Below are positions 4,756 to 15,891 of a stretch of DNA of 44,307 nt, in pieces (the first letter of the stretch is position 1; every line of letters begins with the position of its first letter). The notes under the pieces were generated by a model that ran no database searches, was not told the origin of the DNA, and worked only from the letters and a program-made list of their open reading frames with translations. Source of the DNA: a virus. The stretch lies in the UHGV virus genome UHGV-0213691. One strand, written 5' to 3'. The position numbers were made by a program, and so were the translations under genes.

Positions 4756-5040
4756 CTAACTATAATAGTTCGCTATTAGGTCGTCAACCTCTTCTTTTGT
4801 TCCTACTACAAAAACATTTGCGTCACGTTTACGAAGCCGTTTGTGTTCCCGCAACTGATGGGCCTCCGGTTCCGTGTTTTCGTCTTTCTTCACCTCGACG
4901 AACCATATCACCCCTCCCGGAAGTACTACTAGCAGATCAGGCGCTCCGTTTCTACCCTCATACACCATCTTACGTACGAGGCCACCGAGGGCCTCGAATC
5001 GCTCTTTTGCGTATTTCTGGATGCGGCCCTCTTTAGTCAT
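4756..5040 (-). CDS. VRR-NUC domain nuclease
   Basis: 94 aa; PD-(D/E)xK-type signature PDLLVV...FVEVKK. Confidence 0.7.
   Translation of the reverse strand: MTKEGRIQKYAKERFEALGGLVRKMVYEGRNGAPDLLVVLPGGVIWFVEVKKDENTEPEAHQLREHKRLRKRDANVFVVGTKEEVDDLIANYYS
4759..4787 (-). promoter_or_regulatory. Sigma70-like promoter (TTGACG-17-TATAGT) with operator AATAG-N4-CTATT (4764-4777)
   Basis: Read on minus strand; hexamers with 17-bp spacer; lies inside the 3' end of the VRR-NUC ORF. Confidence 0.45.
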
Positions 5041-8411: not shown

Positions 8412-8440
8412 ACTATAATAGTTAACTATTCAGGTGTCAA
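8412..8440 (-). promoter_or_regulatory. Sigma70-like promoter (TTGACA-17-TATAGT) with perfect palindrome AATAGTTAACTATT (8417-8430)
   Basis: Consensus -35, 17-bp spacer, operator overlapping spacer and -10; upstream of SSB-like gene. Confidence 0.55.
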
Positions 8441-8673
8441 CCCTTCCAGCCAGTTATTTTCTCAACTATCAGTACGTATTCGAAAGGCCCCTCCAAATTC
8501 TGCACCCATTTAATTTCCTTCGTTGAGTCAAGTTGCTCGGGGTCTACCGTTTCGTACTTAATCGCAACGTAGACCGTGAGCGGAAGAAGGATAACTAGAA
8601 GCGGCACTAACATTGCCCAGTAAACTACGAAGGCCACAAGCCCGCCAAGCACCCTGAACATTTTACGAATCAT
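8437..8673 (-). CDS. Small membrane protein (78 aa)
   Basis: ATG at 8673 with GAGGAGGA RBS; hydrophobic core LVAFVVYWAMLVPLLVILLPLTVYVAI; ATGA overlap with DUF2800 stop. Confidence 0.4.
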   Translation of the reverse strand: MIRKMFRVLGGLVAFVVYWAMLVPLLVILLPLTVYVAIKYETVDPEQLDSTKEIKWVQNLEGPFEYVLIVEKITGWKG

Positions 8674-9944
8674 TCTAAATCCTCCTCTGTTACCTGATTC
8701 CACTCAGGACGTTTATCGTCTGCCGTTGCAACACATGGCGCGCCAGGCTTACGGGTCACGAGTTTAGCCAATTCTTCCCACAGTTCTGGGTCAATTTTAC
8801 CTATGGTTTTTTCTGCTTCTGTTGGGGTAACTGGCACTAGTTTATCTAATAAGTAGCCGTTTACATGGTTTTCTCTGAATTTATTTACTGCGTCTTCATC
8901 TTTCCACGCACGATTACCGGGACGACCTTCAACCAGCTTGTACCCAGGCACTTTCTTACCTGAATGCAACGCAGCAGCCATAGCTCTCTCCACCTTGTCG
9001 ATGTGCTGGCGCAACAACGGCAACTTCTCATACTCAGCTGCGAGTTGCTCTGGTGTAAGCTCCAGTGCAAAGTCGTCTTCCAGTTCTTCCGCCAGCACCG
9101 AGTTAACTGTTTTTGTACGCGCTGCGCACTGTTCGGAGAACCGACACCACTGACAACCATCTGCCGATGGCTTGAAGTCCGACGCTTTCAGGTTCTTCTT
9201 GCCACGTGAATAGGCGTCAAGCGCTAACAGAGCGCGTTTCTGTGCGAACTTAGCGAACAGTTCCAGACCTTCAACCGAGATGTCACACTCGGACGCACCG
9301 CCAGCATACGGCTGGAAGATAACAAGACGAACAACTGTGATGTTATAACGTCTCCTGAGTCGGCGATAAACACCGAGAGCGTAAAGCATTAGCTGCTTGT
9401 TTTCTTTCGCTTCGACACGATGCCGTCCCGTTTTAAGGTCGCCAATAATGAGCATGTGCTCGTCAGTGTTTGCCAGTTCCTGAACGGCAACAAGGTCGGC
9501 GGTGCCGAACGTCTCAATGCCTTCGTAGCCCGGATGCAATACCTCAGTAAGATTGACGCGCATTTCCAGCTTGGCGTAAGTCGCTACATCGATAATCGCT
9601 TTGCAGTAATCGGTGTACTTGCGCACCTGCTCAATCATATCCGTCGTAATCAGTACCGCACCTTTCATCGGGCTTATTAGCGCCTTAATCTGGCCTTTAC
9701 CTTCATCCAGCACGTAAGCACCGACTTCACGCTCTAATGGCAACGCAGTACCGCGTATATAGGCGTTGAGATGTACCTCAGCTATGGTGTGACACGCGGT
9801 CCCTATAACGGCGGATTTACCCGAAGTGTTAGGAATATCTTTTTCACAGGCCAGTGACGCCGCGCATGACAGCCACTTTTTCGCCCCAGACGGCGACAGT
9901 AAGGCGTGCACATCGTTATTGCCACCGCGTTCCTTTAAAATCAT
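8670..9944 (-). CDS. DUF2800-like PD-(D/E)xK nuclease with C-terminal Cys cluster (Cas4-like)
   Basis: About 424 aa from ATG 9944 (track start 9959 is GTG); N-terminal LSPSGAKKWLSCAASL; C-terminal CQWCRFSEQC cluster. Confidence 0.65.
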   Translation of the reverse strand: MILKERGGNNDVHALLSPSGAKKWLSCAASLACEKDIPNTSGKSAVIGTACHTIAEVHLNAYIRGTALPLEREVGAYVLDEGKGQIKALISPMKGAVLITTDMIEQVRKYTDYCKAIIDVATYAKLEMRVNLTEVLHPGYEGIETFGTADLVAVQELANTDEHMLIIGDLKTGRHRVEAKENKQLMLYALGVYRRLRRRYNITVVRLVIFQPYAGGASECDISVEGLELFAKFAQKRALLALDAYSRGKKNLKASDFKPSADGCQWCRFSEQCAARTKTVNSVLAEELEDDFALELTPEQLAAEYEKLPLLRQHIDKVERAMAAALHSGKKVPGYKLVEGRPGNRAWKDEDAVNKFRENHVNGYLLDKLVPVTPTEAEKTIGKIDPELWEELAKLVTRKPGAPCVATADDKRPEWNQVTEEDLE

Positions 9945-10213
9945 ACCCTGCTCTCCCACTGGTCAATTAAATGTCGTGTCTTATGTTCGCAGTGCATAGC
10001 CCACCCATACATCGACTCGAAGACATAAAAGTCAGGTTTGGCAAATGTCGTGCGCTTAATCTGCGACACGTGACGGCCTATATCTTTAGGCCGCGGTACT
10101 TTGCCTAAGTACGCCATCTCTTTCATCTGGTGCGCACCGGACGGCGCACGCAACAGCCATAGCGCCTCTGTGTTATCCCGCCTGTCTACGGCGCGATAGA
10201 GTTGGTAAATCAT
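9941..10213 (-). CDS. Hypothetical protein (90 aa)
   Basis: ATG with GAGGA RBS; its first 28 codons are duplicated at 10693-10769. Confidence 0.5.
   Translation of the reverse strand: MIYQLYRAVDRRDNTEALWLLRAPSGAHQMKEMAYLGKVPRPKDIGRHVSQIKRTTFAKPDFYVFESMYGWAMHCEHKTRHLIDQWESRV
10137..10213. repeat. Direct repeat copy 1 (77 bp; 63-bp identical core 10151-10213)
   Basis: Near-identical to 10693-10769; covers the 5' coding end of gene 9941-10213 and stops at its start codon. Confidence 0.85.
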
Positions 10214-10232
10214 GTGCTTATCCTCAAAGTCA

Positions 10233-10252
10233 CCCGGCGCCGAAGCGCCGGG
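10233..10252. promoter_or_regulatory. GC-rich perfect hairpin (CCCGGCGC-CGAA-GCGCCGGG) in intergenic spacer
   Basis: 8-bp stem, 4-nt loop, no U-tract; between Tad2-like gene and next gene. Confidence 0.35.
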
Positions 10253-10260
10253 CCGGTTGA

Positions 10261-10524
10261 TTATTCTTCGTTATCGTCCAAAATAATCCAGTCGTAAGAC
10301 AGGACATCAGTTTGCGATGCCAACCACGGTACTAATTTATCATCGGCAGTTTTCATGCAAATAAATGATAGTGTTTCAATACCATCAACGCCTTCGACAT
10401 CAGATTCAAAGCTCCAATGGTTGCCGACGACGAGGAAAAGGAACATATTTTTACCATTCCACCCACCGCGCGCAACACGGTGCCCGATAGCTAACGCTTT
10501 AGTTGCTTCCCCGAAATTAATCAT
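10261..10524 (-). CDS. DUF2829-like protein (Tad2-type candidate anti-Thoeris cyclic-nucleotide sponge)
   Basis: 87 aa; FGEA..AL..G.RVARGGWNGK.MFL and MKTADDKLVPWLASQTDVLSYDW match the remembered DUF2829 signature; ATG with GAGGAG RBS. Confidence 0.45.
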   Translation of the reverse strand: MINFGEATKALAIGHRVARGGWNGKNMFLFLVVGNHWSFESDVEGVDGIETLSFICMKTADDKLVPWLASQTDVLSYDWIILDDNEE

Positions 10525-10528
10525 GTCA

Positions 10529-10769
10529 TTACTCCTCTATATCGTAATACTTAGCGACAATGGCTTTCAGTTCCTTGTGGAACTCCTGCACCTGGAGGTC
10601 CTTCAGCTTTTTGACTGAACGGGCATCATATCCGTCCAGCAGGTCGTCCAGCTCGTCGGCGCAGTCGTCAGAATCGCCGCTGCCGATGTGCTCCGGACGG
10701 TGCGCGCAACAGCCATAGCGCCTCTGTGTTATCCCGCCTGTCTACGGCGCGATAGAGTTGGTAAATCAT
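10529..10769 (-). pseudogene. Mosaic gene remnant: duplicated 28-codon N-terminus fused out of frame to a paralogue of the acidic protein C-terminus
   Basis: ATG at 10769 reads MIYQLYRAVDRRDNTEALWLLRAPSGAH then stops at 10668; the +1 frame continues for 70 codons ending at 10529-10531 and resembles the C-terminus of ORF 10813-11340. Confidence 0.3.
10693..10769. repeat. Direct repeat copy 2 (77 bp; 63-bp identical core 10707-10769)
   Basis: See copy 1; the two copies bracket a 556-bp segment containing the Tad2-like gene. Confidence 0.85.
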
Positions 10770-10812
10770 AATTCCGACCCTCAGTTAAAGCGGCCAGAAG
10801 GCCGCGAGATAG

Positions 10813-11340
10813 TTATTCTTCTTCGAAGTACTTGTTCTTGATTGCCGTCAGGCGTTCCAGGTATTCAGCCAGGTCTTCGTCTTTAATCGCGGCAATCTTC
10901 ATTTTCTTACCGGTGAACTCTTCCAGCAGTTCATCAGAATCATCGCACGCTGCATCGCTCGGACCTTCGTTAATCGCATCATCAATAGCCTGAATCTGGT
11001 CACGCAGAGACTGGTAATCGACTTCTTCTTTCTCTTCTTCCGGCTCTGGCGTCGGCTCCTCTACTTTAGCTTTACGTGGCTTACGTTTAGGCTTCTCTTC
11101 TTCTGGTTTAGTGTCAACGACGTCTTCACCTTCTACCGGGATTTCTTTTTTAATGCTGGATTTTTGTAATTCTAATGTATGTTCGAGTTCAAGTTTCTCT
11201 TTAGCCACCTCGTGCTTGGCAATGGCGATATTTAGTTTTGTGTCCAGTTCTTTCGATGATGCTTGTTTCACGCTATTCGCAGCAATCAGTTCATGCGCAA
11301 CTACGAAACGTTCCAGTAATACTAAGAATTTCTCTAACAT
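10813..11340 (-). CDS. Highly acidic, E/K-rich early protein (175 aa)
   Basis: First gene of leftward operon; GAGGAGAG RBS; long acidic low-complexity stretches. Confidence 0.55.
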   Translation of the reverse strand: MLEKFLVLLERFVVAHELIAANSVKQASSKELDTKLNIAIAKHEVAKEKLELEHTLELQKSSIKKEIPVEGEDVVDTKPEEEKPKRKPRKAKVEEPTPEPEEEKEEVDYQSLRDQIQAIDDAINEGPSDAACDDSDELLEEFTGKKMKIAAIKDEDLAEYLERLTAIKNKYFEEE

Positions 11341-11371
11341 TTGTTTCTCTCCTCTCGTTTGGTATGGGCTA

Positions 11372-11400
11372 ACTATAATAGCGAACTATTCACTTGTCAA
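11372..11400 (-). promoter_or_regulatory. Leftward early promoter (TTGACA-17-TATAGT) with operator AATAGCGAACTATT (11377-11390)
   Basis: Consensus -35, 17-bp spacer; in divergent control region. Confidence 0.6.
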
Positions 11401-11464
11401 TGGGCTTTTCTAAAATAATTAATATGGTACTATTCACATATCAACTGACTAAGGAGTAATCGAC
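11401..11464 (+). promoter_or_regulatory. Rightward promoter/operator region for the HTH gene (degenerate operator AATATGGTACTATT 11421-11434; RBS AAGGAG)
   Basis: TACTAT -10-like hexamer at 11428-11433 but no clear -35; strong RBS 11451-11456. Confidence 0.35.
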
Positions 11465-11680
11465 ATGCAACCATCCGAACTAGGCATCCGTGTAGAACAA
11501 CGCCGTAAAGAACTAGGCATCTCCCAGCGCCGTCTTGCGGTCCTGGCCGGCGTTTCCCAGGGCGCGATTAACCAGCTTGCGCTCGGGGTAACTCAGGACG
11601 TCCGCCCGGCGACGCTGTTTAAACTGGCGGAAGTGCTGCAAGTAGACGCCAAGTGGTTGGCGTTCGGTGAAGGGGCTTAA
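11465..11680 (+). CDS. XRE-family helix-turn-helix transcriptional regulator (Cro/CI-like)
   Basis: 71 aa; HTH signature ELGISQRRLAVLAGVSQGAINQLALG; divergent from leftward early operon. Confidence 0.75.
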   Translation: MQPSELGIRVEQRRKELGISQRRLAVLAGVSQGAINQLALGVTQDVRPATLFKLAEVLQVDAKWLAFGEGA

Positions 11681-11698
11681 CGCCCCTTTCTTTTTACC
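11672..11698 (+). terminator. Intrinsic terminator after HTH gene
   Basis: AGGGGC-TTAAC-GCCCCT hairpin followed by TTCTTTTT. Confidence 0.55.
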
Positions 11699-13965
11699 TA
11701 TTCCAAATCCTCCGCTGTCACCACCAGCATTTCATTCGGTTCGTATATTGTCTTCGGAATCTTGTTATCCGTTATCCTGGTGTTAAGCCGGTAGCGGCCA
11801 GGTATTATCTGATTGTTTTCGTCAGTCCCCGGAACAAGATACCCGGCCTCAACCATTTTCTTAATCTTCCCGCGTTCTATGGCTTCTTTGGAGTTAAACG
11901 CCTTTGCGTTGGGGTCTGACTGAGCGAGCTTATTCGCTGCGGCCACCGTGATACCTTCATTGCCGTTGTAGGTTCCTTCTGCCAGTTCAAACGCTGCCAG
12001 TATCGTGGCTTCCGAACTGTTGACGGCGTTCTCTACGGTTTTACGTACGTTTTCTTTACCTTCCTTTGTCAGCCCTTCTTCCCGCTCTTTCTCCTCGTCA
12101 GTTTTGAACGGCTCGAAGCCCCACGGCATCAGTACAAGCGCCTTGTGCGGTTCAGGCAGGTCGAGGTTTACGATTGTGCCGTATTCCTCTGTGCTACCCA
12201 GGAACTCAACCGCGCGATACTCTTTCGGCGGCGGGGCTTCACGGAACTGTACTGACTCCAACACCATACCAACCGTCTTCTGTTGAGGCCCGTGCTTAAA
12301 TTTAGAGTGGTATACGTTTATCTGGCGGTCGGTAGCGCGTTCGATTGTCAGCTCCACGTCGACGCCCGCATACAGCGCCCCACTGCCACGGGCCTTCTTT
12401 CCACCCTTCGGCGTATGGTGGACAACGCCTACCGCAGCTTTAGTCGCATCACGTACTTCTTTCAGGATGGCAATGACTTTACCCATGCCGATTGCCGTCG
12501 ATGAACTGTTCTCGTCGAACTTATCAATCGTCAGGGCCAGCGTCTGGTTAAGGGTGTCGAATGCGACCATGCCAATTGGCTCGTCACCCGCAGTTTCACG
12601 CATTAACTTAATCAGGTTTTTCAGTTTTCCGACTTCGCCCATGTCGATAACATGTACATAATCTTTACCTTCCTCGCCATATTTAGCCGCGAGTGCATCT
12701 ATACGTGTGCGGGTAGCTGCGCCGCCCTCACCGTCGATATAAAAATGGTGGCAACGCTGCGTATCAGCTCCCGCAAACCGGTATCCTGCGGCGCTAAGGT
12801 ACATCATCCCCAGTGTATAAAACGATTTGTACGTGCCAGATTCCCCGACGATATCCCAGATACAATCTGATGGCACATACCCTTCGACGACGAAATCAGC
12901 CTTTACCGGTTCCGGTAGCTCGTCCTCCTCTGGGTCCTCGTCGTCTTCTAGGTCGTCGAGGCTGCATGAAACTGATTCACGCGCGCCCCAGCCAATTGCC
13001 TCAGCGACTTCACTGAACGGCAGCCCAGTCGCATCGCACGCATACTTCCACACCTCTTTCGGTGACATGCCTTCGGTTGCCGTAATGTCGGTGTCGTGAA
13101 TCATGGTTACGTTAGGCGCTTCGTACCCTTCACGTGGGAAGCATAGCAGGAAGTCGTCCGGACGCGGCGTCGGGTCGCTGTAGTTCTCTGCGTGTTCTGG
13201 CGTAGCTGGCATCTTCAGACCGCGGGGCGTCATGACGCCACCATACTCGAACGCCAGTGCTTCGAACGCGTCCGTAAACGCGGTGCGCAGTTCTTCCGGT
13301 ATCTGGTAGTCAGATGCGCTGCTCACCTCGTAATCCGGTACGCCTTCCAGTAACTCGTCAGGGTCAATCAGGTCGTTTCGGCGCGACCAGATAACCTGAG
13401 AGCCGACCGGTGGCAGGTACATCGGCTGGGACAGAGTAAACCCGCTGCGGTCCGCGCCCATGCCTTTGAAGAAGTGCTCCAGCAACCCGTGACGTACGCG
13501 GATGATGTCACCGCCTTCGACCGGGCGGGCCAGCGGCATGACGACGCGAAAGCGTGGAGACTCATCGGTATGGGATGCCGTGGTGTAAACGCACATGGCT
13601 TTACGGCCTCGCTTAACCAGGCGCACTGCTTCCTGGTACTCTTCCGGCGTTGCGCTGTCGAAGTCAAGATACGCCAGTGACGATTTAGTTACAGACGCGT
13701 CACAGCGATAGAAGAAGCCTTTACGCGCATGCTTAAAGTCACCTGTTTCCGGGTCTTTTACGGTGCTGTGTGTCGAGTCGCACGCGGCGGTGATATATCC
13801 CGGCGCGGTCTTCGGGTTAACCCCATCACGGACAGCATCAAGCGGCTGGAGTAGCTCTTTCAGGTCGTCCAGTGTTGCCGTGTGAGTGGTTCTGACGTTT
13901 ATATCCTTTTTCTCTGCCCGCGCGTTGCGACGGGACCACGAGTAGGATAAAATTACATCGGACAT
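11698..13965 (-). CDS. Bifunctional primase(-polymerase)/helicase
   Basis: 755 aa; N-terminal AEP-like motifs YLDFD, ASHT, RFRVV; C-terminal RecA-like ATPase Walker A GESGTYKS and Walker B MVAFDTL. Confidence 0.7.
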   Translation of the reverse strand: MSDVILSYSWSRRNARAEKKDINVRTTHTATLDDLKELLQPLDAVRDGVNPKTAPGYITAACDSTHSTVKDPETGDFKHARKGFFYRCDASVTKSSLAYLDFDSATPEEYQEAVRLVKRGRKAMCVYTTASHTDESPRFRVVMPLARPVEGGDIIRVRHGLLEHFFKGMGADRSGFTLSQPMYLPPVGSQVIWSRRNDLIDPDELLEGVPDYEVSSASDYQIPEELRTAFTDAFEALAFEYGGVMTPRGLKMPATPEHAENYSDPTPRPDDFLLCFPREGYEAPNVTMIHDTDITATEGMSPKEVWKYACDATGLPFSEVAEAIGWGARESVSCSLDDLEDDEDPEEDELPEPVKADFVVEGYVPSDCIWDIVGESGTYKSFYTLGMMYLSAAGYRFAGADTQRCHHFYIDGEGGAATRTRIDALAAKYGEEGKDYVHVIDMGEVGKLKNLIKLMRETAGDEPIGMVAFDTLNQTLALTIDKFDENSSSTAIGMGKVIAILKEVRDATKAAVGVVHHTPKGGKKARGSGALYAGVDVELTIERATDRQINVYHSKFKHGPQQKTVGMVLESVQFREAPPPKEYRAVEFLGSTEEYGTIVNLDLPEPHKALVLMPWGFEPFKTDEEKEREEGLTKEGKENVRKTVENAVNSSEATILAAFELAEGTYNGNEGITVAAANKLAQSDPNAKAFNSKEAIERGKIKKMVEAGYLVPGTDENNQIIPGRYRLNTRITDNKIPKTIYEPNEMLVVTAEDLE

Positions 13966-14023: not shown

Positions 14024-14257
14024 TTATTCCAGGTCTTCTAAAGTGGCTGTCATTCCGCGAACTTCGGCAACGGCACTATATTTCCCACCAACATTTTTCA
14101 CGGCACCAGATTTAACCAGTACCCTCAATGACCCTTCAATAATGGCAGAACTATAGTACTTAAAATAACTGCGGCGCAAGTCGATAACGCTGCACGACCC
14201 TTTTTTACGTGTTAACGAAACGACCGCCGTAAATACGCGTGACTGGAACTCGGTCAT
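14024..14257 (-). CDS. Hypothetical protein (77 aa)
   Basis: ATG start overlaps upstream gene stop (ATGA). Confidence 0.45.
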   Translation of the reverse strand: MTEFQSRVFTAVVSLTRKKGSCSVIDLRRSYFKYYSSAIIEGSLRVLVKSGAVKNVGGKYSAVAEVRGMTATLEDLE

Positions 14258-14424
14258 TTCACGTTCTCCTTAATCCACGCTTCCACCTTCTCCGGGTCAA
14301 ACGTACCTGGCTGACGGCGACCCATAATGCGAATACAGCAATCCGGGAACTTCCCGCTCTTTAACCAGTTATTCAGCGTGCGACGAGTAACTCCTATACG
14401 CTCCGCTACCTCATTCTGTGTCAT
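14254..14424 (-). CDS. AlpA/excisionase-like HTH DNA-binding protein
   Basis: 56 aa from ATG 14424 with GAGGG RBS (track start 14457 is TTG); MTQNEVAERIGVTRRTLNNWLKSGKFP. Confidence 0.55.
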   Translation of the reverse strand: MTQNEVAERIGVTRRTLNNWLKSGKFPDCCIRIMGRRQPGTFDPEKVEAWIKENVK

Positions 14425-14456
14425 TCTCAAACCCTCATTATCAGTTAACGAAACCA

Positions 14457-14485
14457 AGTATACATTGCGAATAATGGGAAATCAA
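14457..14485 (-). promoter_or_regulatory. Candidate leftward promoter (TTGATT-17-TATACT)
   Basis: Hexamers with 17-bp spacer read on minus strand, just upstream of ATG 14424. Confidence 0.3.
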
Positions 14486-15693: not shown

Positions 15694-15891
15694 ATGAGCG
15701 AGTGGGTTAAGTGTAGTGAGCGTATGCCTGGTGATTTTGAAGATGTTCTTGTTTCAGATGGAGATAACGTCGAGGTTATGTGGTGGGACTGCGACGGTTT
15801 CTGGGATTGTTGGGCGCCGCGTAACTCAAACATCGATATTGACGATGTAACCCACTGGATGCCGTTACCTGAGCCGCCATCGCTGGTATAA
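15694..15891 (+). CDS. DUF551-like phage protein
   Basis: 65 aa; C-terminal VTHWMPLPEPP and W/C-rich core. Confidence 0.5.
   Translation: MSEWVKCSERMPGDFEDVLVSDGDNVEVMWWDCDGFWDCWAPRNSNIDIDDVTHWMPLPEPPSLV

Follow-up and report, generated by a model that had tools for sequence, protein, structure and literature searches.

Gene order and transcription signals around the 87-aa ORF

The DNA analyzed here, a stretch of 44,307 nt (the window), constitutes all or nearly all of the genome of a Kagunavirus (Guernseyvirinae), a K1G-like siphovirus of E. coli, and its relatives are 88-96% identical to it over positions 8500-12000. An ORF of 87 aa, proposed in an original prediction that left the strand unstated, is indeed present at 10261-10524 and is located on the minus strand (Table 1). 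Its product, MINFGEATKALAIGHRVARGGWNGKNMFLFLVVGNHWSFESDVEGVDGIETLSFICMKTADDKLVPWLASQTDVLSYDWIILDDNEE, contains both motifs that had been quoted for it. Upstream extension of the ORF is blocked by a stop four codons 5' of the ATG, and a Shine-Dalgarno sequence (GAGGAG) is found 7 nt 5' of this start codon. The plus strand of the same interval contains many stops and was rejected as a coding strand; a plus-strand ORF at 10355-10618, likewise of 87 aa, was set aside as an antisense shadow of the gene.

Table 1. Features of the leftward unit that contains the Tad2-family gene, in the direction of transcription.
Feature	Position	Strand	Remarks
Sigma-70-type promoter, TTGACA-17-TATAGT	11372..11400	-	11/12 match to consensus; palindrome AATAGTTCGCTATT in the spacer
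175-aa gene, phrog_3127	10813..11340	-	First gene of the leftward unit; resident allele of the gene from which the stub derives
Direct-repeat copy 2, truncated 5' fragment of the 90-aa gene	10687..10769	-	phrog_4965, E 3e-12, profile positions 1-31/86; left recombination scar
3' stub of a phiEap-2-type upstream gene, ending in ELDDLLDGYDARSVKKLKDLQVQEFHKELKAIVAKYYDIEE and a stop codon	10529..10686	-	158 nt; imported together with Tad2
Tad2-family gene (87 aa, PF11195; predicted sponge for a TIR-derived ADP-ribose signal)	10261..10524	-	Intact ORF, stop codon included
Imported spacer with GC-rich hairpin GGCCCGGCGC-UUCG-GCGCCGGGU	10214..10260	-	47 nt; MFE of the region -23.6 kcal/mol; no U tract
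Intact 90-aa gene, phrog_4965	9941..10213	-	Begins with direct-repeat copy 1 (83 nt, 10131-10213)
DUF2800 / PD-(D/E)XK (Cas4-like) exonuclease gene	8670..9959	-	DUF2800, E 2.7e-69

The gene is part of a leftward replication module, in which the promoter at 11400-11372 is followed by the 175-aa gene (auto-annotated in relatives as a '13.88 kDa late protein'), the block containing Tad2, the 90-aa gene and the DUF2800 exonuclease gene; the module continues with a second promoter at 8440-8412 and the genes for an ssDNA-binding protein and DNA polymerase A. The presence of the exonuclease gene downstream identifies the unit as a replication/recombination module. The promoter at 11372-11400 is likely to be the start of the unit, and no other promoter-like site was found on the minus strand between it and the Tad2 gene. 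From this layout and the match to the promoter consensus, early expression of the gene is plausible; the 'late protein' label that the upstream gene carries in relatives speaks against it.

Both promoters on the minus strand (11372-11400 and 8412-8440) share a 29-nt design, TTGACA-NN-TGAATAGTT-NN-CTATTATAGT, with 0 occurrences expected by chance, and in both the palindrome AATAGTnnnCTATT lies within the spacer. The palindrome looks like an operator of early promoters, possibly for the Cro/CI-like HTH protein encoded at 11465-11680, divergently from the Tad2 unit. When up to one mismatch is allowed, the motif GAATAGTNNNCTATT has 15 matches in the window vs 0.15 expected, across early and late regions, with about 12 sites, at 4763, 8416, 11377, 11421, 14872, 15910, 16222, 19095, 24945, 27935, 28026 and 37162; we regard the motif as a genome-wide regulatory or promoter element. 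Other small genes in the window encode a second HTH regulator (14254-14457, minus strand), a DUF551 protein (15694-15891, plus strand) and a phage lysozyme (18442-18981, plus strand), and most small ORFs between 14000 and 21000 gave no family match.

Family assignment and predicted fold

The assignment of the protein to DUF2829 in the original prediction was correct. An HMM search matches it to PF11195 with an E-value of 3.1e-22 and a score of 79.3 bits (the curated cut-off is 25 bits), covering positions 2-72 of the 73 in the profile, and it also matches phrog_872 and phrog_1048 in PHROGs. Sequence matches in the PDB are to Tad2 proteins only; with phmmer these are HgmTad2/AcrIIA7 (4.6e-16), SptTad2 (1e-14), SPO1 Tad2 (1.1e-14) and ModTad2 (1.9e-14), and with a profile of 71 homologues the E-values for the solved Tad2 proteins improve to between 1e-20 and 4e-23.

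An AlphaFold2 monomer model, built on the alignment of the 71 homologues (pLDDT 92.9, pTM 0.82), has helices at residues 4-12 and 71-75 and strands at 16-19, 28-32, 54-58, 64-66 and 79-82. The model shows the Tad2 fold, with an N-terminal helix, an antiparallel beta sheet and a short C-terminal helix, and superposes on the solved Tad2 structures. When the model was compared with the PDB by Foldseek, all 24 significant matches were Tad2 structures (E 6e-8 to 7e-6, TM 0.68-0.80), and the first match beyond these had an E-value of 0.8. The Pfam match, the matches to solved Tad2 proteins, the fold and the residues of the gcADPR pocket discussed below thus agree with the proposed DUF2829/Tad2 membership, which makes the protein a candidate Thoeris sponge. 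As far as computation on the sequence and a predicted model can establish it, Tad2-family membership is established.

Among the characterized members of the family, SPO1 Tad2 (gp34.65; 8SME/8SMF/8SMG, 8WJE) is a single domain of ~88 aa with the same fold, which aligns in one stretch with residues 2-82 and, like the protein described here, belongs to the class with a short insertion that lacks a dinucleotide pocket. It differs in its origin, a Bacillus myovirus rather than an E. coli Kagunavirus siphovirus, and in its beta2-beta3 loop, which is three residues shorter in our protein and unrelated in sequence. The best matches in both sequence and fold (TM 0.77-0.80) are HgmTad2/AcrIIA7 (8KBI-8KBM, 8WJC) and SptTad2 (8WJD). 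Their gcADPR-binding half is near-identical (GWNGK and CMK.AD...WLASQTD), but both carry an insertion of 35-41 residues, absent here, that forms a second pocket for cGG, cGAMP and cUG. ModTad2/MoTad2 (9EIB, 8V3E) is similar in length (~89 aa) and fold and also aligns in one stretch with comparable scores; its ligands are His-ADPR and cUMP, and type I Thoeris is not among the systems it inhibits. Tad1 and Acb2 follow the same strategy, as small phage proteins that form oligomers and sequester nucleotide immune signals without cleaving them, but their folds and families are unrelated, and the protein-family and structure searches with the 87-aa protein gave nothing pointing to either of them. 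The protein is a typical short member of a large family (2,783 non-redundant homologues in IMG/VR; Hadary et al.), and it changes nothing in what is known of Tad2 itself.

The duplicated flank, the imported block and its distribution

The direct repeat reported to bracket the gene is real, although its length is 83 nt and not 77 nt. The two copies (10131-10213 and 10687-10769) are 95% identical and match exactly over their first 65 nt, and the repeated unit corresponds to codons 1-28 of the 90-aa gene downstream. Copy 2 is left as a dead-end ORF of 33 aa (10668-10769) that runs into the block containing Tad2. In the direction of transcription, the order is the 175-aa gene, a 43-nt spacer, repeat copy 2, the 158-nt stub, Tad2, the 47-nt spacer and the 90-aa gene; phage AV104 has a spacing of 43 nt between its 175-aa-type gene and its 90-aa gene.

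The DNA on either side of Tad2 resembles that of phiEap-2, an Enterobacter phage of the Guernseyvirinae. The stub is 95.7% identical to the 3' end of ABY59_0200059, which holds the equivalent position in phiEap-2, and the 47-nt spacer, whose end coincides with the ATG of the 90-aa gene (the right junction), shares 92.6% identity with the spacer that follows gene 58 of phiEap-2. The direct repeat is therefore the recombination scar left by the import of a 473-nt block (10214-10686) consisting of the stub, Tad2 and the hairpin spacer. On one side the block joins the 90-aa gene at its ATG; the other junction, an illegitimate one, falls 83 nt into a second copy of this gene.

The metagenome contig L014, from a phiEap-2-like member of the Guernseyvirinae, is colinear with the window from 10695 to 10210 (93.2% identity over 486 nt). 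It encodes a Tad2 protein (P0001) that is 90% identical to the one described here and is followed by the same hairpin spacer; one of the nine amino acid differences, Q71R, falls in the SQTD motif. In contrast to the window, the contig has a full-length phiEap-2-type upstream gene of 165 aa and no duplicated 83-nt fragment, and we read its order of 165-aa gene, Tad2 and spacer as the donor-type arrangement.

With respect to base composition, the Tad2 gene has a G+C content of 43% vs 51% for the genome, and a GC3 of 0.43 vs 0.51-0.61 for the neighboring replication genes. As the resident 175-aa gene is equally low in GC, composition alone does not mark the import.

The stub has no usable start codon in the window, where only a GTG-initiated ORF of 20 aa is present; it was therefore rejected as a real small gene and treated as a scar. 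In contigs of the L003 type a point change creates an ATG, by which the stub becomes an ORF of 67 aa, and in two other contigs (L007, 4309-4665; L009, 3054-3410) the first ~76 residues of NinX are in frame with the last 41 residues of the stub, giving a 118-aa chimera upstream of Tad2. The spacer upstream of repeat copy 2 (10770-10812, minus strand) also contains a GC-rich hairpin, GCGGCC-UUCU-GGCCGC, again without a U tract. Neither this hairpin nor the one at 10214-10260 was flagged by a scan of the minus strand for terminators; with the U tract missing from both, they were rejected as terminators and read-through was assumed. Both may instead be elements for RNA stability or processing.

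A nucleotide search with positions 10100-10830 matched 360 related phage records, none over more than 43% of the query, from which it follows that none of these ~360 records holds the Tad2 block. By tblastn against 50,697 phage records, the best match to Tad2, in Klebsiella phages that do not belong to the Guernseyvirinae, has no more than 67.5% identity; the closest homologs in these records (60-68% identical) belong to phages of Klebsiella, Proteus, Acinetobacter and E. coli that lie outside this subfamily. IMG/VR gave 0 exact matches to a 28-mer of the gene, and a literature search found no paper that links Tad2 with Kagunavirus.

The exact Tad2 protein is encoded on 17 metagenome contigs, and all 10 that were examined are Kagunavirus-like. 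In these 10 Kagunavirus contigs, which are from different samples, the whole 473-nt block is 99.4-100% identical, compared with only 68-99% for the flanking genes; the stub, Tad2 and the spacer are each 97.9-100% identical to the window, with a single synonymous difference in Tad2. The genes around the block are more diverged from those of the window, with 81-94% identity for the 175-aa gene, 85-96% for the exonuclease gene and 68-100% for the ssDNA-binding gene; since the contigs were retrieved by exact identity of the Tad2 protein, the comparison of Tad2 is biased, whereas that of the flanks is not. To the left of the block three architectures occur: that of the window, the same with either NinX or the gene of a 76-aa protein added before the 83-nt fragment, and the fusion of NinX with the stub. 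The pattern is that of a single recent acquisition, after which the block would have moved between diverged backbones by recombination, and a near-identical block on diverged flanks is an argument that the gene is useful and for that reason retained.

The ligand pocket and the proposed function

In SPO1 Tad2, W25, N26, W73 and D79 were identified as the main contacts of 1''-3' gcADPR, and T78, I63, T65, D67, H71 and S76 as further residues of the pocket (Yirmiya et al., 10.1101/2023.05.01.538930). In the HMMER alignment the four main contacts correspond to W22, N23, W67 and D73 and are all identical, and the further residues correspond to T72, M57, T59, D61, V65 and S70. Counting the main contacts, 8 of the 10 pocket residues are identical to those of SPO1 Tad2, and the two that differ (V for H71 and M for I63) are at water-coordinating or hydrophobic positions. 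W22, N23, T59, W67, S70 and D73 are invariant in the 71 homologs. The motif S-Q-T-D is common to our protein and to SPO1 Tad2, HgmTad2 and SptTad2, for which crystals with gcADPR or its binding have been reported, and is replaced by S-V-S-D in ModTad2; in this comparison, which spans four proteins only, the motif favors a pocket of the gcADPR type.

Together with what has been described for the family, these features suggest how the protein could act. The gene would most likely be transcribed by the host RNA polymerase from the sigma-70 promoter at 11400-11372, within the leftward replication-module unit, and translated from its own strong ribosome-binding site. The N-terminal helix is predicted to pack on the antiparallel sheet and, by analogy with the solved homologs, in which two V-shaped dimers form a homotetramer with two interface pockets, the protein would assemble into a homotetramer with two pockets at the protomer interfaces. 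Each pocket would be lined by W22 and N23 from the beta1-beta2 loop, M57, T59 and D61 from the strand before the loop, and W67, S70, T72 and D73 from the loop and helix alpha3. The pockets would hold, without degrading it, a second messenger derived from ADP-ribose that is made on infection by a TIR protein of the host (ThsB). The likeliest ligand is 3'cADPR (1''-3' gcADPR), possibly with 2'cADPR in addition, and with this signal held the NADase of the Thoeris effector ThsA would stay off and the phage cycle could be completed. The mechanism here is probably that of the family, in which a Tad2 tetramer keeps ThsA off by sequestering an ADP-ribose signal made by a TIR protein, in this case most likely 3'cADPR. 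The data show family membership, fold, conserved pocket residues, an intact gene with its own ribosome-binding site, and the recent import and spread of this gene; tetramer formation, the ligand, the timing of expression and the effect on infection are all inferred. Type I Thoeris was inhibited by four of five diverse Tad2 homologs that were tested (Yirmiya et al., 10.1101/2023.05.01.538930). Across three sponge families, 19 of 84 proteins tested inhibited none of seven systems (PMC12393519).

The systems inhibited by the Tad2 family are varied and comprise types I, II and IV Thoeris, CBASS and Pycsar. The protein could therefore be a sponge for another or an additional signal, such as His-ADPR (type II Thoeris), N7-cADPR (type IV Thoeris), cUMP or cCMP (Pycsar), or one that has not been described. 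Individual homologs inhibit type II Thoeris, type IV Thoeris and Pycsar, and Tad2_71 inhibits three Thoeris types together. ModTad2, of much the same length, uses its canonical pocket for His-ADPR and a second pocket for cUMP, and the profile of the 71-homolog subfamily scores it as high as SPO1 Tad2; in addition, a combined Pycsar and type IV Thoeris operon was mined from E. coli genomes (PMC13069673). On the other hand, the SQTD motif rather than the SVSD of ModTad2 is present, the main gcADPR contacts are all retained, and identity in the structural alignment is higher to SPO1 Tad2 (39-47%) than to ModTad2 (34-37%). Taken together we consider another ligand possible, though unlikely. A further reading, that the protein is a Tad2 variant for an uncharacterized immune signal of Enterobacteria or a pan-Thoeris binder like Tad2_71, is in our view improbable. 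If it were true, the near-identical copies on diverged Kagunavirus backbones would reflect a recent selective sweep driven by a TIR-signaling defense common in the hosts, the protein could serve as bait for the uncharacterized signal, and the duplicated 83-nt flank would permit clean loss and re-gain of the cassette.

The original prediction also offered an anti-CBASS function, for which we found no support. The dinucleotide pocket of HgmTad2, which accepts cGG, cGAMP and cUG, is formed almost wholly by an insertion of 41 residues (residues 32-72), and Tad2 homologs with 35-41 residues inserted between beta2 and beta5 bind cyclic dinucleotides, whereas SPO1 Tad2, with an insertion of 24 residues, binds none. 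In our model, the segment between the strands at 28-32 and 54-58 has ~21 residues, and residues 32-59 of HgmTad2 are without a counterpart in the HMMER alignment. Mutants of HgmTad2 that lose binding define R31, S47, F70 and N85 as the dinucleotide contacts (numbered as in the paper, i.e., chain number minus 1); the first and third of these are V32 and T51 here, N85 is deleted and S47 falls within the missing stretch. A dual anti-Thoeris/anti-CBASS sponge of the HgmTad2 kind, whose second pocket would accept cGG, 3'3'-cGAMP or cUG, is consequently very improbable, even though HgmTad2/AcrIIA7 is the best phmmer match, the C-terminal half (CMKtAD...WLASQTD) is nearest to HgmTad2 and SptTad2, and SptTad2 is the top match in fold. 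As the equally short ModTad2 carries a second pocket for cUMP, a second site of a different kind is conceivable.

Since Tad2 is located inside a recombination scar, alongside the dead stub of one gene and a truncated copy of another, and is missing from all matching related phage records, it might be a neutral passenger that was brought in by illegitimate recombination and has no role in the phage. The ORF is nevertheless intact and preceded by a strong ribosome-binding site, the residues of the ligand pocket are conserved, and the unchanged block is found on at least three left-hand architectures and on backbones whose neighboring genes differ by up to 30%; the same block on differing architectures and backbones points to repeated transfer and retention, which makes a mere passenger extremely unlikely. 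The CRISPR-Cas systems known from E. coli are type I rather than type II, and Cas9 is for this reason no expected target. The least probable of the alternatives is a Cas9-inhibiting anti-CRISPR of the AcrIIA7 kind, as might be read from the homology to AcrIIA7 (8kbi, 9kzr; E about 5e-16) and from the annotation 'anti-CRISPR protein' of a 63% identical homolog in E. coli phage Louie: Cas9 inhibition by HgmTad2/AcrIIA7 or other Tad2 homologs proved irreproducible in vitro and in vivo (Li et al.), and DUF2829 proteins were concluded to be anti-Thoeris proteins (Yirmiya et al., 10.1101/2023.05.01.538930).

As a sponge for a TIR-derived ADP-ribose signal, Tad2 would broaden the host range of its carriers to strains with Thoeris-type TIR signaling defenses. 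Kagunaviruses, the K1G-like phages of E. coli (K1-capsule strains included), are candidate therapeutic phages, and the cassette appears to be spreading among phages that are considered for therapy. The locus also offers a clean natural example of the movement of an anti-defense gene, in which the import can be reconstructed base by base.

The slot between the 175-aa and 90-aa genes (at 10770-10812 in the window), into which the Tad2 block was imported, is empty in AV104, holds two small genes in XY1 and contains unrelated small genes in fEg-Eco06 and others. This differing cargo characterizes the slot as a hot spot for accessory genes, and as a place to mine for more anti-defense genes. Elsewhere, the same slot is occupied by NinX in several Guernseyvirinae and by a 76-aa protein in one, and the equivalent slot of phiEap-2 holds a membrane-like protein of 52 aa.
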